Assembly (NCBI RefSeq): GCF_004010195.1
Contig: NC_057751.1
Coordinates: 6,831,934 to 6,895,933 of the forward strand
Source of the DNA: Chiloscyllium plagiosum
Taxonomy: Eukaryota
Direction of reading: 5' to 3'
Length of the DNA stretch: 64,000 nt
Position 1 is the first letter of the stretch. Every line of letters starts with the position of its first letter. Below, in pieces: positions 1 to 24,627 of this stretch. The position numbers were made by a program, and so were the translations under genes. The notes under the pieces are model-generated. The model was not told where the DNA came from. It did not search any database and saw only the letters and a list, made by a program, of their open reading frames with translations.

Positions 1-1345
1 CTGTCAGACAAATAAGGTTGTAGTAGTTGGTCATATCAATTACCATAGGGTAGACTGGGGAAAAAAAAAAAGTGTTGGGTGCACAAGGGGAGAAATTCCT
101 GGAGTGCGTTCAGGAGAGCTTTCTGTAACAGTGCACTTCTACTCCTCCCAGGGAGGAAGCTGTGCTGGATCTGGACTTGGATCTGACCCTAAGAAAATGA
201 GGCAGACCAAACTGAAGAATGTCAGAGTGCAGGATCATATGGAAAATACTGATCATAATACAATTAAGTTCAACATAAAGTTAGAAAAGGATGAAAGCCA
301 GTCAAGAATTAAGATTCCACGCTAGAAAAAAGAAGGCAGACTTTAGGGGTGTCAGAATTGTACTTGAGCAGTTTGATTAGAAACGTATTTTGGTGGATAA
401 AACAGTGCATGAAAAAAAACAAAGAGACTTTCAAAACAGAAATGAACGGGATGCAAGATAGATACATACGCTTGAGAAATAAACCGTATCCAAAGCTAGA
501 GTATCCTGAATACCTAAGGATGTTTGAGATAATAAGGAAGAGAAAAAGGAGGTATACAACACATTACCTAATTTCTGGTGTGATGATTATTCTGTTGAGT
601 GTCCTAAATTCAAGAGAGAGACTAAGGCTAGAACATGGAAGACTAAGAGGAAACATGATGGAAGGATGGCAAACTGCATTGAGACAAAGAGTACAATATT
701 TTTCAAACATCTTAGTGCTAAAAAATTAGCAAAGGATAGAGTGGGACCTTTGAGGAACAGACATGGTCAGCTGCTTACTGAAACAAGAAAAGGTATGACA
801 GTCACTAAATCAGTACTTCACTTGTGTCGTTACCACATCAAAAAATGATGACAATGGCCCAATTGAAAAATCTGGGTATTGAGCAACAGAGCACGTTATT
901 AAGAGATTGTCAAAGAGGAGGTGCTAAAATGGCTGGTCACATTCCACACAGAGAAGACACCAGACCTGGGATGCATCTCAGATTGCTGAGATAGTTCAGA
1001 GAGAAAATCCGGGAGCCCTTGACAGAAATGTTCAAAGCCCCTCTGAACACAGGATTAGTCCCTGCCGACTGCAGAATTGCAAATGTGATACTGTTCTTGA
1101 AAGAACGGGCCAGAGGATAACCTGGGAAACTACAGACCTGTCACCTTGACATCAATAGTGCAAAAACCGATGGAGACCATAAAATGAGACAAGATAAAGA
1201 TGCAGTGAGCTAAGAATAAGCTAATACAAGAGTCAACAAGGCTGTGTCAAGGGTAGGTCATGTCCGACAAATGTTATTCATTTCTTTGAGGATCGTGCTG
1301 TGGATGTTGGTGTTTGGACTTTTAGAAAGCACCTTTTAAATGTTT
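1..1345 (+). mobile_element. CR1-clade LINE ORF2 fragment (endonuclease end through start of RT), decayed
   Basis: Frameshifted motifs: VVVG(D)xNYxxxDW near 19-58; PGNYRPV(S)LTS near 1121-1155; xGxxKGRSCxTN near 1237-1272; LDF..KA near 1314-1332. Confidence 0.85.
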
Positions 1346-1439
1346 TGGACTGATGGTGCTTAATTCTTAAATTAAAAGTGAGCTAAAAATAGGAAACAGA
1401 GGTAGGAGGATGCTGCTCCTTCAACAAGGTTAAGTTGTC

Positions 1440-1835
1440 CTTGTCTCTTTCAGAGCGGTGAGCTGCAGCTTGTGGGTTATCTGGTTTGGCTCGGTTTTTG
1501 GGGCCAATTTGATGACAGTTAACAGCTACTGCCTCAGGCTGTAAGCTTTCAAGTTAAAAAAACGACTTGTACAATGAAAGGGGAGTGACCAGTTCTCAGA
1601 GGTCAGCTTTTCTCTGGCTTGGTTTGGTTTTAGCAAGTATCGGTTTTTGATGCTACAGGTCAAAGAAACAGCTACACAGGCGAATGTGTTCCATGCTGAA
1701 TCCCCCTGCCATTTCTCTCTCCAGTAAGGTCCGGTGTTTGATTTTACCTTTTTTGCCAAGGGACGTTTTTGGGGGTTGTTGAAGGAATGCAGAACAGCAT
1801 CATTAAGTTGAGATAGTCTTTTGGGTTTTTGGTTT
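1440..1835. repeat. Unclassified interspersed repeat, possibly an LTR fragment
   Basis: Shares short motifs (ccttt..tgccaag, ggttttagc/ttttagcc) and style with 33850-34200. Boundaries not resolved. Confidence 0.3.
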
Positions 1836-3129
1836 CATTCAGAAACAAAGCAGAAATGGTGTTAAAACTCAGCAGGTCCTACATGGACAAATTGGACTGA
1901 AAAGGTCTGTTTCTGTGCTCTACAACTGTATGCACAATTGTGAAAATAAAATTTCAAACCAATTTCAAGATGATGATGTCTCACTTTCGATTTTACCCTA
2001 GGTTGACAAAGTCTGCATAAGGCTTACGATTTAATTTTACCATGACATTTTTGTTGCAAAGTGCATTATTATTAGGTATCATTGAAATTAATTAAACATT
2101 TATTAGATTCCATTTCATGTTTACAGAACCTTGAAGATTTATTCAATACATTTTGTGCATTTTCATTATTTAAAGGGTAGATTTATGCAATCATGCTTGC
2201 AAGTGTGGACATTTGTAAATGTCAGATTTACATTTATTTTTTAATAAAAAGAACATCTTATTTATTGTGCATTCTTGGGTGCGAGTAGCAAAGGTAGAAC
2301 ATGTGCAAGGCAGCACTTTTCAGGAAATGCTTAATGAACTCTTTTTTACAGCCAGCTTTATTTTCGTGATAAAACCACTGCAATCACTGATCTCCACATG
2401 GAAATCTCAACCAATACAGGTACATTCATGGTTATCTACAGTTGTTGACAAACTCACATTGGAGCCTTTAAAGATATTATGATGCAACCATGGGACCCAA
2501 CTGGTTTTGACTCAGGGACTATGGCAGATATTGCTAGATGCACTCAAACCCCTGTGAATATTGATTGAAACACGCATCAGCCACAAATTCAGTAAATTAT
2601 GTCCTTTTTGAGGCTGTCATACTGCGGCCTTTTTTGCCATGAGAAAATTTGTCGTCAAATTGCAACTAAAATTGTCTGAAGCGAAGCAATCAACTAAGTT
2701 AACGTATTGGTGATTTAGGGGCTATTCTATCCGACTTCCATTGCATTTCTTTAGTTGACAGAACAATGCCATTCAAGTCAGTGTCTCAAGAATAGCACTG
2801 AATTTCCTGTACTCACTTCATGCATTGATTTGTGTTTAGCCAACATAAATTAAATTTGCATTTCACTTTGTTTGTTCACAGAAACCGAATGTTATTTTAG
2901 GGCTCAGTGAGAAGTAGAGATTGGAACTTAGGACAGGTGACTTAGCCATTGCTCAAGAATCAAAGACTCGACCCTATATACCTGCCATCGTGATCAATGC
3001 ACGATAATGTGATGATGGAGATGTTGACGAAGTTTAGATGAATCACAGCAGTTAGTCAATAATAGACAAGATGTAAGACAAGGAAATCTGCAAGTGTCCA
3101 GATGTAAAGATCTGACAGCAGAATGACTG

Positions 3130-3266
3130 CTGAAGAGCTGATGAAGGGCTTATGCCCAAAACATTGATTCTCCTGCTCCTTGGATGCTGCCTGACGTGCT
3201 GGGCTTTTCCAGCACCACACTCTTCGACTCTGATCTCAAGCATCAGCAGTCCTGTCTTTCTCCTAT
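3130..3266 (+). mobile_element. Solitary Penelope-like pseudo-LTR with decayed hammerhead motif
   Basis: ctgatgaagggcttatgcccaaaac...ggatgctgcctgac...ttttccagcaccacac closely matches the terminus of the GIY-YIG element at 4330-4424. Confidence 0.8.
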
Positions 3267-3427
3267 AGACTGACTGCTGACTAGGGTTCATTAATCCTAA
3301 GTTATCGCAAGTCTTGGAGGAAAGTTAAAAGTTGTCTTGTTGCTTTCATTTTAGTGTTCCTTATGAAAATATCAGAACACATTGCTCATTGCAATAACCG
3401 TTAATTGTCTGAATCAGTTAAGTATCT

Positions 3428-4424
3428 AGGAGAAAGTGAGGACTGCAGGAGGTAGAAATGGGCAGTGTGGGATTGTGGGACTGAGGTTGGAGGCGGTGGA
3501 TGGGAGATCCCCTGAGGTGATGAGGTTATGGATGATCTGGCAGATGATGGTTTGGTGGTGGGAGGTGTAAATCCACGAGCTGGCATTTACATTGCTGAGG
3601 CTAAACGCCAGCTCGTGGACACCACCTCCTACTGCCCCCTTGACCATGACCCCGCCTCCACCGCATCTGCTCCCAGGAGGACCAATTCCAATACCGAACA
3701 ACCCAGATGGCCTCCTTCAAAGACCGCAAATTCCCCTCAGAAATGCAAAACCTGCGCCCACACGTTCCCCCCTCACTTCCCTCCAAGGCCCCAAGGGATC
3801 CTTCCATATCCATCACAAATTCACCTGCACCTCCACACACATTTACTGCATCCGCTGCACCCGATGTGGCCTCCTCTACATTGGGAGACAGGCCGCCTAC
3901 TTGCGGAACGTTTCAGAGAACACCTCTAGGACACCCGCACCAACCAATCCAACCGCCTTGTGGCTGAGCACTAACTCTCCCTCCCACTCCAAAGACATGC
4001 AGGTCCTTTGCCTCCTCCATTGCCAGACCATGGCAACACGACACCTGGAGGAACAGCGCTTCATCTTCCGCCTAGGAACCCTCCAACCACAAGGAATGAA
4101 TGCAGATTTCTCCAGCTTCATTTCCCCTCCCCCCACCTTCTCAGTCCCAACCTTCGGACTCAGCACCGCCTTCTTGACCTGCAATCTTGTTCCCGACCAC
4201 TCCACCCCCACCCCCTCTCCGACCTATTACCCTCACCTTAACCTCCTTCCACCTATTCCATTCCCAACGCCCCTCCCCCAAGTCCCTCCTCCCTACCTTT
4301 TATCTTAGCCTGCTTGGCACACTCTCCTCATTCCTGAAGAAGGGCTTATGCCCGAAACGTCGATTCTCCTACTCCTTGGATGCTGCCTGACCTGCTGTGC
4401 TTTTCCAGCAACACGTTTTTCAGC
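3428..4424 (+). mobile_element. Penelope-like element (GIY-YIG endonuclease C-terminus plus pseudo-LTR), internally deleted, with an inverted 5' segment
   Basis: IYCIRCTRCGLLYIG and ETGRLLAERFREHL (two frames), and EEQRFIFRLGTLQPQGMN. The 5' end (aggagaaagtgaggactgcag) is the reverse complement of the pLTR end. Perfect 14-bp TSD TCAGTTAAGTATCT at 3414-3427 and 4425-4438. Confidence 0.92.
4330..4365 (+). ncRNA. Minimal type-I hammerhead ribozyme motif within the Penelope pLTR
   Basis: CTGAAGA (4334-4340), extra A, stem II GGGC-TTAT-GCCC, GAAA, then C-GTC (palindromic ACGT helix III, GUC cleavage triplet). Stem I is weak. Confidence 0.7.
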
Positions 4425-4854
4425 TCAGTTAAGTATCTGTTCCTTTCCCGCAGTAATCTGAATGGAGACCAGTAACTTTATTACTATTTTAATTCCTAGT
4501 GTGTAACAAAAAATTCCTAGTGTGTATGCCACAAGATTGTAATCTTCCAAAAGTTGTACTGTGCATAGATGTATGAGTATTGTGAATTTAATACTATGTA
4601 TTGTACAGACAAGAGTTTTAGAACATAAATCTGAGCAGACCACTTCTGTTCTACTATTTCATATCCTCAAGAGTTCCCAAATACTGGTCAGGACATTGTT
4701 CCTTCTCTTACAACCAAACCATATCATGCCACACAGTTCAGGAATATGCTCTGATTCATCTCCATGTTGTCTTTTTCTGTGGTATGATTTTTCTTGGGAT
4801 TTTTATTCGCAGCTTCTCTGTGGGCAAAGCCCCAACACTCCTCCATTACCTCAT

Positions 4855-5557
4855 GTTTGTTGACACCCCATGCTTGAAAATGAAGTTAGTTTGTTCGCGA
4901 AAGCCTGGGCCGAAGAAGCTGATAAATATCAATATCTCAACGAAGGAATTTTCAATTTAACAAGTGGAACGGAACTTTTTTTTGGATTGGTCACAGATGC
5001 TCGACGCAAATGGCCGAGTCGAACAATAAATTTAAGAATCAGTTAGTTTTCAAAAATACCAGTCCTTTGCCCAAGAAATATCAAAACTCAATCTCTCTTT
5101 CTTTAGAAATGCTGCACATTTTTAGCGATGACTGAGACACTTTCTCTATGCATAAGAACTTGCATGACATTCTAAGGATGGATATTTTATAATTCATACT
5201 TTTTAGCTCTTTAGCATTTGAACACTTTAGTGTTAAGATTAGTGTTAAGATATTTTCACAGTTGTAAGTATATTTTAATAATTTAGAATTTGTTCATTTA
5301 AATAATTAAGATTTAATTTTAGATCAGCACAATGCAAGATGGTGGGTAATGTTCGGTGTTCATTGTTAAGTTTCACCAGCTACACAGATGTTAATATCAA
5401 TGGTCCATAAATTTAGCAAATAGTGCTACCCAGCTCTGTGTTTCTTCAAGCCCATTATGTCCTTAACTGCCTCTGTACCCCCAGCTGTAAGATAGCTACA
5501 TTGAGGCGACGCATACATTGACGAGTGTTAAAATAGTATAGTAACAGTGTATTAAAA
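4855..5557 (+). mobile_element. R2 non-LTR retrotransposon 3' remnant (restriction-like endonuclease C-terminus plus 3' UTR), decayed and 5'-truncated
   Basis: Frameshifted FVD..xENEVSLFAKAWAEEADKYQYLNEGIFNLTSGTELFFGLVTDARRKWP...SFAQEISKL...SLEMLHIFSDD* (stop 5133-5135) matches the vertebrate R2 pattern VD.TVR.E...A.EK..KY..L...LT....F.GF..GARGKW...S....L.S......F. Ends ...attaaaa immediately before 28S TAGCCAAATGCC. Confidence 0.85.
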
Positions 5558-6490
5558 TAGCCAAATGCCTTATCTAATTAGTGACTTGCATAAATGGATG
5601 AATGCGATTCCCACTGTCCATATCTACTATCTTGCAAAACCGTAGCCAAGGGAATGGACTTTGAGACAAAAAAACTGCAGATGCTGAAATCCGAAAGTAG
5701 ACAAGCAGAGGGCTCGAAGAACACAGCAAGCTGGGCAGCATCATGAAATCAATGTTCAGTAAACAGGCTTGGCAGGATCAGTGAGGAAAGACAACCCTGT
5801 TGAGCTCGATTCTAGTCTGGCATTGGGAAGGAGAGACACGAGAGGTGTACAATGAGTGGGAGACCTTGGCTCTACTGAAATACCACTCCTCATATCTTTT
5901 ATTCATTGAGGTTCAGAGTGAGGGTGGTGATGGAAAAGGCCTTTCATTTCTGGTCAGAAGTGGTCGGGCATGACTTCCTCCGGGGACAGTGGCAAGTGTG
6001 AAGTTTGACTGGGGCAGTACATTTGTCACACCCTTTATGCAGGTGTCCTCAGTTAAGCTCAGGGACGACAGAACCCTCCCGTGGAGCAGAAGGGCAAAAG
6101 TGTACTTGATGTTGAATTTCATAACACCTACAGACCAAGAAGGCAGTGCCTTGCGATCCTTTTGACCTTGGAGATTTTAAGCAGGAGGTTTCAGAGAAGT
6201 TACCACAGGGACAACTGGCTTGTGGCAGACAATAATTCATAGCAACGCCGTTTTTTTGATCCTTTGATGTCAGCTTTTCCTACCATTGTGAAGCAGAATT
6301 CACCAAGCGTTGGATTGTTCACCCACTATTAGGGAATGTGTGCTGGGTTCAGACCATTGTGCTACAGATTAGATGTACCCTACTAACAATGTGTTGTTGC
6401 AATAGTAATCCTGTTCAGTATGAGAGGAACCTCAGGTTCAGACATTTATTGTATGTGTTTGCCAAAGGAGTCAATGGTGCGAGGCCTCCA
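5558..6490 (+). pseudogene. Dispersed, decayed 28S rDNA fragment starting at the R2 insertion site
   Basis: Colinear 28S motifs with many CpG transitions: tagccaaatgcc..tctaattagtgac; accctgttgagct; gtttgactggggc; gaagggcaaaag; aagttaccacaggga; gcagaattcaccaagcgttggattgttcacccact; gagaggaacc..aggttcagacatt. No 18S, 5.8S or upstream 28S sequence nearby. Confidence 0.95.
5662..5761 (-). mobile_element. Short Penelope-pLTR-like insertion inside the 28S fragment
   Basis: actgcagatgctgaaatc...aacacagcaagctgggcagcatc. Flanked by two differently decayed copies of 28S AACGGGCTT (aatggactt 5653-5661, aacaggctt 5762-5770), i.e. a TSD. Confidence 0.75.
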
Positions 6491-7789
6491 GGTCTGATTC
6501 CCACCTAAACATAATGGGGGGAGGCGGGGACACTGCGAGTGTCAGAAATGCATGGAGGTTGGATGTCTTCCAACGCTATGACTTAGCTTGCTACCTTGAC
6601 ACGCTGGTGTTTGTCCAGTGGAGTGCGCGTCGTGCCACCCAATGGTCAGGGTGCATGACATGCAGGAAGCTGAGTGCGGATCTCTGCCCATTCACCCTTT
6701 TTGTCCTCCCTCTCTGCCACCAAGCTTCAACATTCCTGAGTTTGCACGGAGTTTCCCACCTTCATTCTGGGAAATTATCACATTCTGTTTTTGTCAAGCT
6801 GCTTTTCAGCTCCAACCAAATATTTAAAAAAAAAAACATCATACAGATCCAAATCCAAAACAAAAAAATGATACTTCCTCCTTAAAATCTACCCCAACAG
6901 CAACCTGGGACACCTGGGATGTTCCATGTGGAGATTTAAACAATTTGGTGTTTTACACCTCAGGCATCCCTCGGATCTGGGACCCATTCCAAAAGGCCAA
7001 GTTTATCTAGCTGGAGGGGATAACTGATCTCCCACACACACTAAGAGAGAATAACCAGACCACCTATTGTTGACTTTTCCCACTGCCTGTTTTTAACTCT
7101 AACCTTATTAAATAAACAGACTACCCTTGTGATTCAGCTGTTTTCTCAGCTTCTTTACTCATCTTCCATTGTAAGTGCGTCTGAGATCTTACAATTAAAA
7201 ACATCAATCCCCGTGAAAAGTTATGCTCCCACAATATAAATGTCAACAATGCAAAAAAGTGGGCACATTGGACAATTGAATGTAGATTTGGCAAAGATAG
7301 CTGGGGCAGGAGATGCCATGCAATCTCCAGAAGTCTAGATGTTCATATTTGGCAACGTTATAACTGACCTATTTCAGTCAGAATGGAGACAGAAGAGTTT
7401 TTTTTAAATAAACCTGACTAGGAGAGAACCAGAACCAGGATATTGATGGCCAAGCAACGGACCCATAACTGATTTACCTACTGTAAATGATCAGCAACCA
7501 GGTGTCAGAGATAATGGGGAAGCTACTATGTGGAGGTAAAGCAAAGATTTTACCAGTGGTAAGAGTGAACCTGGATGATTGTCTCCGGAGGTTGGTTTTT
7601 AAGCATGCAGGCATGAATTGATTGAGCAACAGTGGGATAACAAGATGTAAATATCAGCTGCAATGGCTTTGATCATACAATTGTTCATAATCCTTCCTTC
7701 CCACGTCTTGGCTGTGTTGGAATAAAACCTAATCACACACAGTCACAGGTGGATATCAAATATCCCTTGGCACGACTTCAAACATGAAC

Positions 7790-8020
7790 AAGGGAACTCC
7801 CCCTGGTTTCTGAACCAATCTTCATCCCTCAGCCAACAGCATGAGAAAACAGATTATCTGGTCATTATCACATTACCATTTTATGCTACCTTGCTGTGCT
7901 CAAATTGGCTGCTGTGCAGCCAACATCACAAAATTTCAATGAAATTGCTACATTGACCTGTAAATCATTGAGTTGTCCAGAGGGCATTTAGGATGATGCG
8001 TAAATGCAAAATTTCTCTTT
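7790..8020 (+). mobile_element. DeuSINE (SacSINE1/AmnSINE1-like) fragment
   Basis: atccctcagccaac..aaaacagattatctggtcattatcacatt...cttgctgtgctcaaattggctgc...taaatgcaa, recalled as Deu-domain and tail motifs. Confidence 0.75.
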
Positions 8021-8692
8021 ATTGTTTGTTCTGAACTGTATTTTTTTTAGGAATCCATAGCTGTGTAATATTGATGTAATTCAGTGTCTTGGCTCTTACA
8101 GCATAATATTGCAAAGAAACAGCAAGTTTACCCAGCCTCCTGAAGGGAAGTTCCAGACCTGACCATCTGGAGTACAAAGGGAATACCATTATTATTTTAC
8201 AACTAAAGCAAGGTTAATTTGTAATTGCCATGTGAATATCTTGCCTTTATATTTGTGTCAAAGAACTGGCAAATTGTGTGGTATAAGTTTTGTTCTAGAT
8301 TGTCTGGACCTTCAGCTGCTGTGCTCATTACAAATCTTTTAAGAGTCAGTTGTAGCCTGTTCCTCAAAAGGTATCAATAATTGTTCTCATTCTCAGAATG
8401 AGGTTCCTTGGTTGTATTGCAGTCTCCTGTTTGGTCTCAATGTTGCTGGACATTATTTCCATCTGATCAGACGAACCAAACATATCTTTGTTCAGAATGG
8501 TCAGAAACCTGGATGTATATCAATTCTATCCCTTGCAGAATTTGTCTGTATTGTTGATGTCTAAAATGTTGCGGAGGAAACCATTTCATTAGTAAGTCTC
8601 TGCTTCCCTTCCATTCAGTCTGCCGAATGAATGATTTGTCAATTGAGGAGAAAGATTTGTAAAGCTAACTTGAGGGAAATACTTGACAAGTG

Positions 8693-8886
8693 TGTCCATC
8701 TCACCTACCTTCCCCCCAACTCCACCCTCATCCTCTATTTATCTCAGCTCCCTTTCCCTTCCACATTCCTGAAGGGCTTATGCCTCAAATGTACTGCACC
8801 TTGGATGCTGCCTGACCTGCAGTGCTTTATCCAGCGCCACACGTTTTGACTGACTCTGCAGCATCTGCAGTCCTCACTTTCTCCTC
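8693..8886 (+). mobile_element. Penelope-like 3' end / pseudo-LTR fragment
   Basis: tatttatctcagctcc...attcctgaagggcttatgcc...ggatgctgcctgacctgc...gcatctgcagtcctcactttctcct. Confidence 0.8.
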
Positions 8887-10559
8887 GTGTTAAACTTGGC
8901 AATGACCATCACTGCAAGCAGACAGAGTTGAGTTTTCTATGAATGCAACAGAGTGCGTACACATGCTCAGTATTAGTAATAGATTTATTTTTCTAGTACC
9001 AGCTATTTTCTCAGGTCCTAATCGTGTGGGAATGATCTCCAGGTTTGCTCAATTGAGACTCACTGTTGCTACAACTTTATTAGACCATCCATTCCTTTGT
9101 AAAATATCTTTGTGGCTTCGGGATAACATGCATTCCAATTATGAATTTTCTCAAAGCATTTAATCTTTAATTATTATTTGGTACTCATCTCCACAAACAA
9201 ATTAGTTGATTAGTTTTAAATAATGGTTTAGGGAGTGACAAAGGTCCATTAATGTTGACATTGTGGGAGATAGAAATGGACAATATGTCCCTAAAATCCC
9301 CCTGTAATTCCCAACTGCCACCATGTGTTTCCAAACTTCAAGAGCAACCTCCCAATTCTCGAATGATTCCCGATCTGCAAGTCCGACTTTTCCTCCAAAA
9401 CCAAAATTTCCTTGTTCACTGATCCAAATCCTAAGAGCTAGGTACAAACCATTCTAAAACAGCTGAAACCACAACCACCTACTTTCCAGTTATCAGAATT
9501 TCTGTTCCTGCAGCTAACTGACATCTGTCACATTATCTTTTCCACCTTCCTTTTGTCAAGCAGGACTTTATGAATTATTCAAGCCATTTTGTTTTAAGTA
9601 GTGATTAATTTGAATCCAAAGTTCATTTGGTGGTGCTTTGAAGAGTTTTTGCCCCTAACTCAGTTACATGAGATGTGTGATCCTGTAACAGAGAGAAAGT
9701 TGATTGCTTGCTTTGAGTCAGCATGTGTGATTCTGCATAGGGTAGTCATTCATGTGTTCAATTCCAAAACACAAACAAACAAAGTTTGAGGTATACATGT
9801 AGGCCAAAGCACCATGAAAAGCACCCCTACCCTTGTTCAAAATGTGGCTGTGTAACTTGTCCATCCTTGTAGGAATGGCCTCTAATGTCCAATTGACAGG
9901 ATTCCCTCAATACTGCAGTTGTAGTGTGAGGCTAGCTTGTTGTTCTGGAGCATGCTTTCATCCAGCAACCTTCTAATTCATAGCTCTGAATCTAACCAAG
10001 TGACAATGGTAAAGAGTTGAGGTACAGATCGAGGATCTAAGAATGGCTGAGCAAACTCTAAAGGAGACAATTAGTCTACCAATGCCATGGGAAAGCAGCA
10101 AGTTTCTGATGGTACTGATTATCGTCCATGATAATGATAATGGATACATTAAAAATCAAAATGATTTATATAGTAAGAGAGCAAAATACCAAGTTCGTGC
10201 ACCAATTATTTGACTAAGCAACCACAAATTAAGCACACACTGTTCATGTTTATTGTCTGAAATTATCCTGTACTTCAGAAGTAGCTCTGGCCTTCCAGTC
10301 TGCAAATGCTTGAGGAAAAGTGGATCAGTGTTTTCCTAACACTTCTCTCCCTATCTTTCTCATCGCACATTTTCCTTCCACTTGGCAATAAAAATTGCTT
10401 CCATCTTGAGTCAAATAAACCCAGTGCAAATATAGCCACCATCCTCCCTCTACCATCCCAAAATGTGTATTGTCATACCTAGAAGGCAGGTAGAGAAATT
10501 CCAAAGACCAAAACAGTGTTTGCCAGCTTGTGTTTTAAATCTGTTTCTTCGACAAAATG

Positions 10560-10890
10560 GACAACTTCCCTGGACTCAAAAATGTCTCTGAATAGTAACA
10601 TGATTTCCAGAAGCTTCTGAAACCCATACATTGTATGAGCATTCCAGCTGAAGTGGGCACAGAGGACTTGGAGATGACCCATCTGCTTCAAGGCAGATCT
10701 GGATGAAGGAAAACATCAAGACCCATGATGTAGAATTGAGCAAAGCTTTGATGGTTACCTCAACACTTCACAATGCAATGTGTAACAAGGGCCAACCAAC
10801 CTTCCATTTAGCACACAGACGGGGCATCAACACATGAAATGTCTCCATCACATGACAGATCAGAACAGGTTGATGTCAATGTACAACTCT
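10560..10890 (+). mobile_element. Probable RTE-clade LINE 3' fragment, highly decayed
   Basis: ccagaagcttctg...ggcacagagg...cccatctgcttcaagg resembles the RTE PK.LL..G.R..G.P..RFKD region. Confidence 0.35.
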
Positions 10891-13391
10891 GAGATTCTAA
10901 GTCTGTGCTCTCCAGAGAGAGGGGGAGAGGGACAGACTCCACACCAATTCAGCAGTCTAACTCAGATCCTTAGTTTCTGTCTCCATATTTCTGGTTGCAA
11001 AAACCTCATTTGACTTGCAAGGAGAAAGAAAAACCAGACTCCTCCCCCCCACCCAGGCTCAAAGAAGAAATGACTCTTGGACACTGGACTTCCAGGAAGT
11101 TTATAACCCTGATGAACTGACCTAAAAATTGCACTCTTTGGATTTATCCAAAACTCCAAAGTTACGCCTCCTTTCCTTTGGTACTTAATTTGCAGAGTGT
11201 TTCGATGCACAAAATGCATCATGCAACAGTTCCTTTGCTTTGTTTAATGTTCTGTCAATAATCCAAATCCATAATTTCTCATTTGTTTCCACTATAGACT
11301 TATTTCACAAGTTTAAATCTAAACCTTCTGTCACATCTGACAATTAATCTGCAATCTACCTTGGAGACACACACAATATCGTCACCGTATCATAGCACAT
11401 GACTTATGGGATAGAGGCCTCAGTCTGCACCTGCGGATACTTGCAACAGAACCTTTAATTTCTAATCAAATTGATCAGTGCAATTCCAGATAGAGTGGCA
11501 CTACTGAGTTGTCACATTGGTTGATTATGGGAAAAGTTTGTTGCAACTTTCAGGAGGCGACTCGTGTCTAGTGTGAACATTTGGTAGCGAACATAAGTAT
11601 TACCTAATCAGGCATAAATATCTTGCTGAGGATTAAAAACCCACCACTATTTCCATAACAGATCAAGAGGACAAGTGAGAAAGCCAAAAAAACCAGCATT
11701 TTGGGAACACACTTTGGCCCACATTCATAAGATACGAGAACAAAGAGCTCAAGATTCAAATCCAACAAGACTTAGCTGTTTCAGGCTTCAAGAGGTAAAA
11801 GCAGTCAATTTAAATTCACACTCAACTCCCCCCTCACATTTAAATTTGCAGCATTTGGTGTGCCAGTGATTGAAAGCAAGCACCTACTTTGCAGTTGCAA
11901 TAAATAAACTATTTGATAATAAAGAAACTGGAGATAGAGAGCAAATTAATCTACATCTCCAAAGCAAAGTGGACCTTTAGCCACAATCTCAGGAACCAAA
12001 CAAAGTGTGTCAGTATTGTACAGGACCTCAACATGTTTTACAATTTGCTGGGAATCACTGGAGGGAGGTTGATGTGGATCTTTGGTGTTATGACCTTGTG
12101 GTATCCTGTTGAGTGGTAATTGGAGGCTAGGATGAGATGTTCTGTCTTGGGGAAATCCAGAATTGAAGTTATTTTTCTGACCTGAGCTTGGCTGCTGAGA
12201 ACACAGCATGTAAATTTGAAAGCTGTCTGCCAGATTTGGCATACCATGTTTTGCAAGGCCAAGGAGTACAAAACCAAGTTTCAAAACTTTGCTGCTTTGT
12301 TTTGAGTGAACTGAGAAGTTGGCCTTGATCGGCAGTTCCAGAAAAGTAACAAAGGAATACACAATATCACTAAAACAAGGCACCATGGAAACTTCAGGAA
12401 GTCTGGCCAGTTGTTATTAACTTCATTTATCCCTTAGCTGTCTTTCATATGAAATGGGGGCCAAAAACAAATATTTTAGGGTTAAAGCAGACATGAATTA
12501 GAGGACTATTTTGTTTCAGTTTCTCTGCTAAAGTCATGGTCTATTTCATAAGTAGTCAAGTGTGTTGTTTAAGATACAAAACTGTCTGGAAATTAATTAT
12601 TTGCAAAGCCTGGAATTGGTTATTGAGCAAGGTCTGGCGAGAAGTCATGAGGGGAACCATTTAGAATTTTGCGATTTAATTCTACCATTTTGTGAATGCA
12701 GAGGTAGAAATGCTCAGGAGTATCTCAGCTGTCTGCCTCGATGGCATGCAAAGATGCCTTTCTGAATAACTTTGCCATGTCACTCATTCCCAACTTTACC
12801 TGTTGTGCATTCTTTTGCCTTCCAAAGGCTGTCTTTTCCAAGTATTTGAGACAATCTTGTCCCTGAAGTTGTAATTTCTTTTCCTTCACTTAATACTAAA
12901 GATTGAACTGATTGTAATCTGAAGTCATGAGTTTACAGTAAACTTCAGTGTGATCCATTCAGAAAAATGACATTTTGACTGACTGAGATCCCATTTCTTT
13001 GACTAAGTGTAACGCTTGGCTGAACGTCATGGATACAGCTGAGTTGTCACAGCTGCTACCAATTTCAGTTGCAGACAGAAGCAAGAACAGATGAACTCTG
13101 TGCCTTAACTGAAATCTCATTCAGAACTTGTCATTTTGATTTTTTATGTTGCGTATAAGTCCACTAAACGTCTTGCAGCCTCTGTTTATCAACTCAGCCA
13201 AGCTGTTAAGTGGAATGTGTTGGTCTAGGTTGTATTGACTTGCACAAGTCTGACCTTTTGCTGTTGGGGGCAAATGCTTTACAGGTGGGCAGTTGTGTAC
13301 CGCCTGGTCCATGCTGCATCCAGAGATGCACCTCTGCTAGCATGTGTCCAATCAACGTGGAGTAGTAGCACAAAAAGAGAAGTTCACATGC

Positions 13392-13419
13392 AACAGTGAA
13401 CAGTGAACAGTGAACAGTG
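13392..13419 (+). repeat. (AACAGTG)4 tandem repeat
   Basis: Read directly from the sequence. Confidence 0.95.
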
Positions 13420-14664
13420 TCATGAAATAGAGATTGTAACTGACATGTTTAGCATGAACAGTAGGCTGAACTGTGGGAAGACCAGGCCACTCCTTGATCA
13501 CTGTGTCCACTTTTGGCCACAAAGTCAGAAGTCAAGCCCCTGAGAGTGCACAAAGAGTTTGATCTAAAGTGTTGACGAGAAAGGAAGTACTGAATACAAT
13601 GGGATCCATTCACTTTGAAAGAGTGTTTTCACAGAGACAGATCAGTTAAAAATAAGTGAACCAGACAGGTTTATGTGAAGACAGCTAAAGCACAATGAGG
13701 TAGCAGAGGTTTAAACTTTGGCCATTTGTGCTAATTGTGGCCAGTATTTGGAATGCTCTTCAGGACAAGGCAAAGATGAAACCTTATTTGTATTGTAGAG
13801 ACACAATTTGCCAGGACCTCATTTCTAAAGTGAGCCTGTAAAGCACTCCACAGACTACATTGGCTTATTATTTCTTTAATTTTTCTAAATTTTGTTCCCT
13901 TTAAGAGCTGAATTTGAATCTGAACCTAGGTACCTTTTTCAGGATCTTATGTTGGCTCAAGCTGTGATCTTAAACAGAACTGAAGGGTTCAAAAACATAA
14001 TCCACAATCCCTTGACCCAAATTTAATCCAATGACATTTGAAATTTGGATCTTTAGGTTTTTGAGACAAAAGATTCCAGTGACACCTTGTTACTTAGCAG
14101 TTCACCTTATTTTTAAAAGGCACGATGTGTATTCATGGGAGATGTGCATTACTGTTTTGGCCTGCATTTTTATTGCCTATCCCAAATTGAATTTTCTTGC
14201 AGATTTTTGGCAATTATAATGACAAATGATTAGCTCATATCATATAGTGCTTGGAAACTGGGATAAATTGGGTAAATAAACAATTTAGATCAAGAGAACT
14301 TCGTTTCCCTCAAAATTCACCATTACCAATCCAAGATCTGAGTAAGGACAGTCTTTTTAAACACTGATGTGTGAGCCCAGTTCAAGACTGCAGTGTCAGC
14401 CTAAACGTAAATATACAATTTGCTGATAGTCAGCCAGGAGTGCTGCCAAGGTGACAAATAGCACATGAACAAATGAGGAATACGCTACAGAAAGCCAGCA
14501 ATATTTCAATGAGAAAGTGGCTTAAAAGAAAAGGAACACTTGTTCCAGCTCTTTTCTTATGTTGAAGTCGTTCTTGTATCCTCTCACCAGGAGGAAATAG
14601 ATTCAGGTACACACTTATCGAAATAAATAACTGAAGCTTATTGTAAATGCTGATCTTGAATAAT

Positions 14665-15147
14665 CACCCCATTATGGGAAGGATGTGGAAGCATTGGAAA
14701 AGGTGCAGAGGAGATTTACCAGGATATTGCCTGGTCTGGAGGAAATGTCTTATGAGGAAATGCTGAGATACTTGGGTCTGTTGTCATTGGAAAGGCGGTG
14801 GCTAAGGAGGGGATTTGATAGAGACATACAAGATGATCAGAGGATTAGATAGGGTAGATAGTGAAAGTCTTTTTCGTAGGATGATGACATCAGCTTGTAT
14901 GAGGGGGCATAGCTACAAATTGAGGGGTGATAGATTTAAGACAGATGTCAGAGGCAGGTTCTTTACTCAGAGTGGTAAGGGCATGGAATGCCCTGTCTGC
15001 TAATATAGTTAACTCAGCCACATTAGGGAGATTTAAAAAATCCTTGGAAAAGCACATGGATGGTGGGATAGTGTAGGAGAATGTGCTTAGTTTAGTTCAC
15101 AGGTAGGTGCAACAGAGGGTCTGTTCTGCACAGTATTGTTCTATGTT
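14665..15147 (+). mobile_element. CR1 LINE 3' fragment
   Basis: KDVEALEKVQRRFTR.LPG, IETYKMIRGLDRVD and RGHSYKLRG motifs; ttctatgtt tail; same subfamily as 41059-41663. Confidence 0.92.
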
Positions 15148-15149
15148 TT

Positions 15150-15254
15150 AAGGAGCAGTGCTCAAAAAGCTAGTGCTTCCAAACAAACCAGTTGGACCAT
15201 AACCTGGTGTTGAGATTTTAAAACTTTGTCCACCCTAGTCCAACATGGACACCT
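15150..15254 (+). mobile_element. Terminal fragment of a second Penelope-like family
   Basis: ggagcagtgctc-aaaaagctagtgcttccaaacaaaccagttggaccataacctggtgttg. Resembles a shark PLE terminus with a decayed hammerhead-like stem (gagc-agt-gctc) and AAAGCT. Confidence 0.55.
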
Positions 15255-16449
15255 GGGCCAATGCATTAACTGGGCTGAACAGTGTAAATGATGTTAAAAT
15301 TACTTTTACATTCACCTTTTAGGAATATGACTGATGCAAACACCTCTGTACTAAACAGTGATAAAAAGTCAGGAAATTGACTTTGGATCCTTCTGTTTAT
15401 TTTCAGTGAACTCTTAGGAACTGATGAAGTCCAAGATTCACTTTTTTTTACCTAAACAGAGGAGAATCATGTAATCGAAATTCTGTGAACTAAAATAATT
15501 CACAACTGTCTGTGAAAGTTGCTAAGACCTTAATTGATCAGGAAATACCCAGTTACATAATCTTATTGTACAGATTTGAGAATTTGCAATCTCAGTTTGC
15601 AAATTATGCAGTAATAGTCTTGGAGTGGTGGTGTCACAGAGCTGGTTAATTCTCTCGAATTGTGTGTTTTGTTTTAAAAAGCACTGGTTACAGACAGATT
15701 CTCACAGGAGAAGCAAATTGCCGAGTATGTGCCTAAATCCACTCTTCATGAGACAACACCGATCTTGATAGTCAACCACTGTTCTTTGTACTGAACATTC
15801 ATCCATCAAAGCAATGCAAACTCCCTTGTGCATTCGTGGTCACTGGACAGCCATCATGTTTTAATTAAAAACAGACGAATCATGGACTCTTATGTAAATT
15901 CTGCTTTCTTCCTGCTCATGCTGCCTTCCTCCAGCTATCCCTGGTTTTATTTCAGATTCAAACATCTGCAGTTCCTAGTTTTGCTTCATCTTGTTTAATT
16001 GACCTACCACTCAGCTCATTGCCAATATGCCTTGAAAGAACTCTCAATGGGGAGGACATTGCATTCTGCCCAGGGAATAGCAGTGTCTTGAAAAACACTA
16101 ACCAGTTTCATGGAAACTTGTAGACGCAAGGGAACTTTTGAACACTTAAGCTTGGTTTGACCTACATTAGTTGCATGCCTCATGTCAGATCACTTCACAT
16201 GGCACTGCACCCTTTGTGATAGCTTTCCTTTGGGCTCTTACTCTGGTTCCTGCACCATCCAGTCAGGATGTGACTGAATCACCCAGTGAAACAAAAGCTA
16301 ATTACATGAAGACGGCGAGTTTTCTACAAAAAGAGACAAACCACATGTTGGAAATACTCAACATACCTGGCAGCACTAGAGGAGAAAAAAAAAATGCAAC
16401 ATTTTGACGAGTATAGGACTTCACTATGCCCTACATTTCTCCCTCCTCA

Positions 16450-22605: not shown

Positions 22606-24627
22606 TTTAAGGAGCATCTTCAAGGAGGAGAGCAAATTAGGAGGTGCAGAGAGCCAAGGGGAAGGAATTCCAATGCTTTGGGCTTTGGCAGTTGAGCTAC
22701 AGTTGAGTGTTGGAGCAAGGAACATCAGGGATGCTCAAGTTGCCAGAATTAAATTTCTGTTTTGGGGCTGGAGAATAAATGACAGAGATAAAGAGATGGC
22801 AAGAGCACAATGACAAGTGACGTCATCTTTTGGTGAAATTTCAAATTTACTGAAAGTTCACTTTCCACTGCTTGCATTGATGGAGTGGAACACAACAGCC
22901 AGTGGGCTAATAGTTGCGTTTGCACAGGTGCAAGCTGTACCATCTGTGAAGCAATAAACCTAAAATTAGAAATGTGAATTGCAGCTCCTCGACAGTCTCA
23001 TGTTCTTTGTACCTTGGTATCCTTTCCACCAGCCACTGATCATTTACATTCAAGCCATATGTACAGAAATGTCATCTACATTTACTTTAATGGACAGTTG
23101 CTGAGTTCTATAAACAGTTCTGGATGGATAGGTTTGCCTTCTAGGCATGATCCTCAACCACTGTCACTTCTGTTCCATTATCACGCAATATAAATACTTC
23201 TAATAAAAATGTTGCCTGAGGTTGTCTTTCGAAATAGCCATGGTAAAGTTAGTCAGTACATATATATTGTATCGTTTAACAAGAAATTGATCTTGTCCAA
23301 ATTGGATGAACTTTTCTCGAGTTTGATTTGGTCATATAGCTCAAGCCAATTTCACATCCATTGTTGGAGTTTGTGCAGATTCTGAAAAAGAACAACAAAT
23401 CTACAACAAACAGCTGATTAGATTCAATAGGTTCTGACACTTGACTGATAGACATAGCCACTCACCTTCTCTGCTACAGTGACGTGTGGACATGACTCTT
23501 GTACCAAAAGTTGCCAGTAGACTAAAAAAGTACACAGATCCACATGATGACAGAGTTTTCACTTTGGGTAGAGATAGATTTTTCCTAAATGAAGAGAGGG
23601 AGCACATTGCAGACACAAGTAAAGTAAATGGAGGTAGACTTGTGCTAAGGCAGCTCAAGCAATGGTCTCTGGTGGTGGAAGGGTCAAGGCCATGCAAAGT
23701 GTTTGAGAGCGAGGCTGAGCACTTACTAATTGGGCTGTCAGTAGAACTGACAGCCCACTGCAACCTATTGAGTACAGGAGTTTGGGATGCAATCGGATTT
23801 ACAATGCAGTAATACATTGGTTGAACTGAAACTGCTACCAAAAGGAAGAGGAATCACGTTAAGGCTGGAGACCAGAATTTTTGGCAGGAATGAAAGGCAA
23901 TTGTGGCTGTCTTCCCAGTAATTAGCTTGAGGAAATCTCTATTTATCAATTTATGGATGTTTGTACAACACACAGGAAGGTCCCAGCAAAAAGGTTATGG
24001 TGAGCTTTAACTGGTGGCCACTGGCCTGTATGTGGAAGCGGATGTGAAAGATAGCCTCTTCCTTGTATTGGTGTGCTGTTACTCTGTTAACCCACTTATG
24101 CATTTCCTCGTGTTCCTGAACTTGTTCTGCACATTCATCCGTGCAACATATTGCAAATATCCCTCCCTGCCTTCCCTTCTTAAACCAAAACAGAGTCAAT
24201 AGAGTGGAATTTTACATACCATCACCCATCCATTGACACTTACGAGCATGGCGAAATTGAATGGATGGGATGCATTGGCCAACTTGCCTCTGCTGATATT
24301 TTAACCAGCATTGGAAGAGTTGTTGGCCAGACTCCATTGAGCTAATTGACACCCTCAAATCAATGACTAATGGCTACTTATGGTCATCTCTCTGCCACTG
24401 CTTTCATTTTACCAGCAGCTTAACGTATATAATGCAACTTCCACATTAACCTTTGCAAGTTGGTCGGGAACTAGCAATGAGGAGGTTTCCCCAGAGGTTA
24501 GGCACTCTGTGGGCAATGGAACACCATCCCCTCTCCCACGACACTGTTCTTGCATCCCAATCACGCTTCCAAATCCCTTGACTGGGGCTTGCCCAGTTGT
24601 GCCCAATTCTCATTGAAACAAAAGTAA

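Follow-up and report, generated by a model that had tools for sequence, protein, structure and literature searches.

R2 retrotransposons insert into 28S rDNA between the G of TTAAGG and the T that follows it (PMC6795142). Among sharks they have been described in the angel shark, as R2Sqj of Squatina (Kojima et al. 2016, PMC5035012), and in Chiloscyllium together with many other chondrichthyans (Hassan et al. 2026, PMC13188248, Table S2). In Drosophila, R2 is described as seldom present outside the rDNA locus, and the downstream 28S that accompanies off-target R1 copies amounts to 14 nt at most (Stage and Eickbush 2009, PMC2718515).

Here we analyze a locus in the bamboo shark Chiloscyllium plagiosum, contained in a 64,000-nt stretch of DNA that we refer to as the window. 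The locus is almost certainly a long-dead, 5'-truncated R2 3' end joined to about 850 nt of decayed 28S in single-copy DNA, the whole fossil spanning about 4873-6515 of the window (Table 1). It is one of dozens of R2/28S strays in this genome and is ordinary individually.

An R2 3' end and its 28S tail

The 28S-like sequence begins at 5558 with TAGCCAAATGCC, which places the junction at 5557|5558, and in uninserted 28S copies of the genome TTAAGG precedes the base that matches 5558. The window copy therefore joins 28S at the same base as the uninserted copies and the other R2 junctions, as expected of a canonical R2 3' junction. No upstream 28S was found within window 1-16000, in agreement with the preliminary description, which had the 28S starting exactly at 5558 with none upstream and some 420 nt of non-coding sequence before it; the latter measured 422 nt (5136-5557). 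Neither a target-site duplication nor poly-A was found at the locus, although age could have erased a short duplication, and a processed pseudogene made by a TSD-forming LINE was rejected on these two absences. No stable structure is left in the fold of the R2 3' UTR (z +0.89).

Table 1. Features of the fossil and its flanks, in window positions
Feature	Position	Strand	Remark
Left flank, single copy	4425..4872		no upstream 28S, no target-site duplication
R2 ORF C-terminal end (endonuclease end and linker), 5'-truncated, 2 frameshifts	4873..5135	+	stop codon at 5133-5135
R2 3' UTR, 422 nt, first half AT-rich	5136..5557	+	common to the C9 and C3 sister copies
28S rDNA, +1 to about +106 from the R2 site	5558..5660	+	sequence comparison
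104-nt repeat insertion within the 28S piece, later event	5661..5764	+	imperfect 5-nt duplication
Remaining decayed 28S tail, end near +876	5765..6515	+	Rfam RF02543, 409 bits, E 6e-108
Right flank, single copy	6516..6900		no poly-A

The core of the fossil lies where it was first placed, at 4855..6490, while both of its ends have moved. R2 homology sets in at 4873/4874, and shuffled sequences reached the score of a leftward extension to 4855 in 88 and 105 of 1000 trials. On the right, the 28S tail continues past a deletion of about 28 nt near 6482 to about 6515 (0/300 shuffles), where it stops inside the mature rRNA; the Rfam 28S end at 6588 is unsupported, since 6517-6620 scores no better than shuffles. 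The reading of the fragment as 28S stands, but the 104-nt insert within it, which is 72-86% like repeats at other loci and which we label Penelope-like by assumption, had been overlooked. An abundant repeat at window 3400-4426, about 91% like its copies elsewhere and presumably also Penelope-like, ends 450 nt left of the fossil and has no Pfam match. Elsewhere in the window, a 109-aa open frame at 23483-23812 reads like an exon and likewise lacks a Pfam match, and Pfam gives nothing for the 15 other ORFs.

Only the last ~85 codons of R2 survive, frameshifted and with a lysine of the catalytic motif changed. The remnant peptide lies in three frames, at 4864-5040 (59 aa), about 5054-5098 and about 5088-5132, consistent with the frameshifted peptide with no piece of 60 aa reported previously. 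When the 59-aa piece was searched against 177,635 PDB sequences (E<=10), the sole match was the R2 protein 9nl2 at E 1.3, with the window peptide aligning to residues 1026-1071. The peptide also matches an R2 ORF of the same genome, on C26 (E 2e-4, whole-window search) and the Mustelus R2-like protein P0001 (E 9e-8, pairwise). The R2 identity is carried by paralogs, the 59-aa piece being weak by itself. Over 4873-5661, two R2 copies at other places in the genome share about 70-75% DNA identity with the window copy; the sister copies, C9:63.53 and C3:11.10, show 75% identity over the last 700 nt and reach into the endonuclease and RT regions, and a 707-aa piece of the C26 paralog matches solved R2 proteins at E 1e-157. 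The EK..KY-type pattern noted earlier at the ORF end holds as an R2 end, except that the first K of K..KY is now E in the window copy. Together, the two frameshifts, the truncation and the changed motif lysine mark the copy as a fossil, which bears on its activity and not on its descent. N-terminal zinc finger(s) and the Myb domain set the R2 clade; a young paralog has zf-C2H2 and Myb matches, both sub-threshold, and these domains are absent from the window copy. The copy is truncated 685 nt from the R2 3' end, and full-length young copies show 28S 5' junctions.

A second copy of 5136-5557 adjoining 28S had been set in advance as a test, and the C9 sister has the same UTR and junction, followed by 189 nt of 28S; the C3 sister is tail-less. 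As the preliminary description proposed, the locus is a true R2 3' junction that lies beyond the rDNA array, between single-copy flanks, but with many similar copies it is not unique. There is next to no probability that the locus is an assembly artefact: a sister repeats the junction, each of the two parts differs from all other copies by 18-25%, a private insert is present, and six runs from two studies, one of which may be the source, contain at least half of the sampled words of 4400-6900. Runs of two other organisms contain 5-16% of these words, which provides no evidence for orthologs.

Subfamily and age of the window copy

The inference of an R2 family in a shark lineage was borne out, while its possible novelty was not. 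A copy on C101626 has 5' junction letters identical to those of R2-1_CPl of Chiloscyllium plagiosum, so the young R2 family of this genome has already been described, and shark R2 in general is published (PMC5035012, PMC13188248). Membership of the window copy in the R2-1_CPl family was rejected, since it groups separately in both DNA and protein trees. The window copy represents an older, dead subfamily that includes two or more sisters; published entries were compared with it over their first 400 characters. Within the last 700 nt its identity to non-sister copies is 48-55%, against the 75% that it shares with its sisters, and its UTR is 62% identical to that of the young family over the last ~350 nt plus junction.

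The DNA tree sets the old group apart from the young Chiloscyllium-type copies (100/100). The protein tree shows the same separation (100/98), with the window row 23% filled and with decayed rows that may attract each other. In the protein tree, which is unrooted, the Mustelus protein falls with the old group (100/98), and identities over the window's 70 protein columns are nearly equal (49% vs 41-46%); for these two reasons we do not claim a second deep lineage. A homolog search returned 3 proteins out of 4755 candidates, which is not enough to place the clade. A remnant at C13:76.04 (L086) comes from another R2 family, whose 5' UTR resembles R2-1_STig by eye (PMC13188248), and four other loci (L055, L006, L020 and L085) have the same type of 3' end.

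Compared with the majority 28S of 12 young copies, the window tail differs by 18.2% over 790 columns, with a divergence of 14% at non-CpG and 51% at CpG positions, as is typical of neutral decay. The corrected (JC) divergence of 0.21 matches the terminal branch of 0.22 for the R2 part, so the R2 part and the tail arrived together. Among 31 tails compared, one is clearly older than that of the window copy and one is equal to it.

This shared age bears on whether R2 inserted into a 28S pseudogene already at the locus, with the upstream 28S deleted afterward, which we consider very unlikely. Dispersed uninserted 28S targets do exist, and one copy has an upstream deletion of ~580 nt at its truncated 5' junction; but the R2 part and tail are equal in age, upstream 28S is absent throughout window 1-16000, and an identical loss would be required in 18 copies.

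Dispersed R2 and 28S copies in the genome

A 27-nt 28S motif at +1 of the R2 site, with at most 1 mismatch allowed, has 36 matches genome-wide, of which we viewed 34, leaving out C55741 and C80873. Twenty-nine of the 34 places sit after the 3' end of an R2 or R2-like copy, and the remaining 5 have no insertion. On large scaffolds, 19 of 22 follow an R2 3' end, 2 of these 19 junctions being assigned solely by weak 3'-end likeness, and 3 are uninserted. The rarity implied by the preliminary description is therefore not upheld, as the large scaffolds hold at least 25 tailed R2 copies and there are many tail-less ones besides. Of the 25 whose ends could be used, 18 are broken within R2, as the window copy is, and the other 7 retain upstream 28S, from 75 nt to >2.3 kb of it, which reaches past the -28 ribozyme cut; the vertebrate R2 ribozyme leaves ~28 nt (PMC13580325). 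The upstream 28S piece at C3:34.89 (L112/L157) ends at about -30, beside this cut, and in this one case may have been copied from the 5' product of cleavage.

A search with the young R2 3' end yielded 156 candidates, of which 40 were scored and 20 fetched. Among these 20, chosen for their lack of the 28S motif, 15 have a precise end with 0-9 nt of 28S-like sequence. Eight of 12 independent tail-less copies match TAG or more (6% expected by chance), and five tail-less copies are full length without upstream 28S. Off-target insertions by avian R2 have a primer-complementary flank, as in these tail-less copies (PMC11371274), and the short TAG matches can derive from the target instead of the RNA. 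The tail-less off-target copies L089-L105, several of them full length, belong mostly to one young subfamily, toward which the sampling is biased, and four of them on C8 have an identical flank.

Where a tail is present, its length is graded from 39 to >1000 nt, with extremes of >5000 nt (355 nt in the copy at C16:18.61). All but one of 18 class-B tails stop within mature 28S, and two copies extend >5 kb into repeats past the 28S end. Target-site duplications in 39 copies were no better than in 1482 mismatched (shuffled) pairs, and tail ends did not recur significantly (4 close pairs of 22, p 0.12). The tails decay independently: three loci alone share many derived changes, and the window copy, not among them, shares 2 with its C9 sister, where 1.1 would be expected, and no more than 9 with any copy. 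Since tailed copies also derive from many subfamilies, no master element with a built-in tail lies behind them.

It is accordingly extremely unlikely that an R2 lineage or a SINE-like element carries the 28S piece as its own fixed 3' end, which would also conflict with the variable tail lengths and with the tail-less C3 sister. There is precedent for such an end in fish R2 families with 28S-like UTRs (PMC5035012). An inherited 28S-derived 3' end was rejected as contradicted by the variable lengths and independent decay of the tails. SINE28 is another type of element with an inherited 3' end of this kind.

Several other arrangements were observed among the dispersed copies. The last ~64 nt of R2 form a very short insertion in 28S at four loci (L111 at C1:3.80, L118, L131 and L060), which share a distinct 3' end. 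The 28S tails of L064, L006 and L020, one uninserted and two after an R2-like end, have 28-53 derived changes in common and represent a duplicated or variant rDNA lineage. At L116 (C89898), TAGCCAAATGCCTC precedes the R2 5' junction as an apparent 14-nt duplication of the downstream target. On the window's own scaffold, about 700 kb away, L154 (C42:6.13) is a 28S piece from +19 to +369 without R2.

The dispersed pieces are unevenly distributed around the R2 site. Counts of 27-nt motifs on large scaffolds were 5 (5.8S), 8 (-1550), 8 (-87), 22 (+1) and 16 (+320), so that 28S pieces lying directly downstream of the site outnumber those upstream about threefold (22 vs 5+8+8, p 3e-4). The contrast between +1 and -87 is weaker when all contigs are counted (36 vs 21, p 0.06). 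R2 3' junctions outnumber 5' junctions with upstream 28S by 19 to 4 (p 0.003). Of 25 tailed copies, 20 have an R2 arm that exceeds the 28S arm in length (p 0.004). The window copy goes against this trend, with a 28S arm of 876 and an R2 arm of 685. Arm lengths were entered by hand, leaving out C24 and C47 (N gaps) and all small contigs; the arm test also left out C7:47.49, C2:41.02 and C27:24.92, whose left end is undefined. These polarity statistics are post hoc and use small counts and one motif per position.

Random rDNA fragments predict equal numbers of 5' and 3' junctions and symmetric arms, so the observed skew favors a polar route driven by R2. This matters for a passive origin, in which the locus arose without R2 enzymes, either as a chance piece of DNA from an rDNA unit with an R2 insertion or as a copy of pre-rRNA that had not been cleaved. 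Breaks inside a 4.6-kb element would be frequent for a fragment of 1.5 kb, rDNA far from the site is dispersed too (5 and 8 matches), and the 7 of 25 tailed copies that include upstream 28S fit such an origin. With 4 junctions against 19, a longer R2 arm in 20 of 25 copies and no more than 3 uninserted among the 22 large-scaffold pieces that span the site, we nevertheless regard it as unlikely for the window copy. Independently of R2, each position has a background of 5-8 rDNA pieces, and the counts point to passive fragments plus an excess, roughly two thirds, that is tied to the R2 3' end. The choice left by the preliminary description between a DNA-level orphon and a read-through retrocopy is thus decided in part: the population favors an R2-driven, polar route, and a single locus is not assignable with certainty.

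Possible routes out of the rDNA and relation to known systems

Our leading reading, to which we give a probability of about 0.45, is that the window copy was made by R2 reverse transcriptase from an R2-28S read-through RNA, with every step of the route inferred. R2 would be co-transcribed with the rDNA unit, yielding RNA that continues into 28S. The reverse transcriptase, bound to the 3' UTR, would start about 876 nt down the 28S tail at a break outside the rDNA, and cDNA synthesis would cross the junction and halt 685 nt into R2. The ends would then be joined without duplication, and R2 would in effect have transduced rDNA at its 3' side. Whatever the route, the copy entered single-copy DNA as one unit and has undergone neutral decay since, with no present activity. 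The read-through route is supported by the single unit of a single age, the step at the site, the polarity, the graded tails, the 17 of 18 class-B tails that end within mature rRNA, off-target insertion and the absence of duplications, and the short 28S tails of off-target R1 copies are a precedent (PMC2718515). Insertion by R2Ol increases with longer 28S tails (PMC6530143), and R2 RT switches templates without homology (PMC12203849). On the other hand, avian R2 proteins left rRNA tails of 3-20 nt uncopied into cDNA during on-target TPRT (PMC11371274), and a non-standard start would therefore be needed. The 7 of 25 copies with upstream 28S, the two that extend >5 kb past the 28S end, the R2-independent background of rDNA pieces, the longer 28S arm of the window copy and the lack of significantly recurrent tail ends also count against copying of read-through RNA.

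TPRT leaves the new cDNA attached to the 28S DNA downstream of the cut. If such a cDNA stalled in 5'-truncated form, it could have been copied or moved to a break elsewhere together with the cut rDNA end and a downstream rDNA stretch of variable length. Such DNA-level capture predicts the same polarity and step, the absence of duplication and tails that pass beyond the transcript, and it fits the observation that the tail is not copied from RNA (PMC11371274). It could also account for five 28S pieces that lack R2 and have a boundary no more than 13 nt from the site, three ending at about -3 to -6 and two starting at about -11 to -13, which may be captured ends of R2 cuts. Against it, 17 of 18 class-B tails stop inside mature 28S, one of the five R2-free pieces ends exactly at the 28S 3' end of other copies, which is a signature of RNA, and no precedent was found in the literature searched. 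We therefore judge capture at the DNA level unlikely for the window copy, though well worth considering. The R2-free pieces are L155 (C1:150.79), L156 (C12:8.74), L130 (C101263), L065 (C7:27.82) and L072 (C9:87.40). The last is an uninserted 28S piece that stops at about +1130, which we take to be the apparent mature 28S 3' end, and continues with A-rich bases, like a processed rRNA copy.

Beyond the single locus, and returning to R2 as the agent, we put at about even odds that bamboo-shark R2 has leaked off-target across many successive subfamilies and is the main source of dispersed 28S downstream of the site, carrying tens to >1000 bases with it. The locus itself is without function and adds nothing new on R2 in sharks; its interest is the population to which it belongs. 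The formation of R2 transcript 3' ends and the frequency of missed targets in the germline are hard to observe in collapsed rDNA arrays, and dispersed copies freeze both, while also retaining extinct subfamilies that concerted evolution has erased from the array. If the leakage is real, this genome would preserve, as a natural record, the 3' ends of R2 RNAs or else insertion intermediates, together with the rules of off-target insertion, with relevance to R2-based gene insertion, and the window locus would be among the oldest entries of that record, from a lost subfamily. The same copies are a trap for surveys that assign R2 to rDNA by flanking 28S alone. In the literature searched, we found no account of dispersed R2 copies that carry long 28S tails.

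Compared with the chondrichthyan elements R2-1_CPl, R2-1_CPu and R2Sqj, the window copy has the same 28S site and the same ORF end, and its AT-rich UTR is of similar length (422 nt, against 478 characters in R2-1_CPu; PMC13188248). It differs from them in being from an older, dead subfamily, outside the array and 5' truncated. The vertebrate R2 proteins with structures (PDB 9nl3, 9dou R2Tg and 9nl2) are matched by the paralogous ORF at E 1e-157. The R1 and R2 copies outside rDNA in Drosophila and the PRINT off-targets have short 28S-like ends or primer-complementary flanks, as do the tail-less shark copies (PMC2718515, PMC11371274). Tails of Drosophila R1 are at most 14 nt (PMC2718515), whereas those of the shark run from tens to thousands of bases in dozens of copies. 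In fish, R2 with a 28S-like 3' UTR and R2NS resemble the shark copies in that 28S travels with the R2 end or the site is non-canonical (PMC5035012). In these fish elements, however, the 28S piece is inherited or specificity is lost, whereas the shark tails vary and decay independently, and the same shark lineages also occupy the canonical 28S site.
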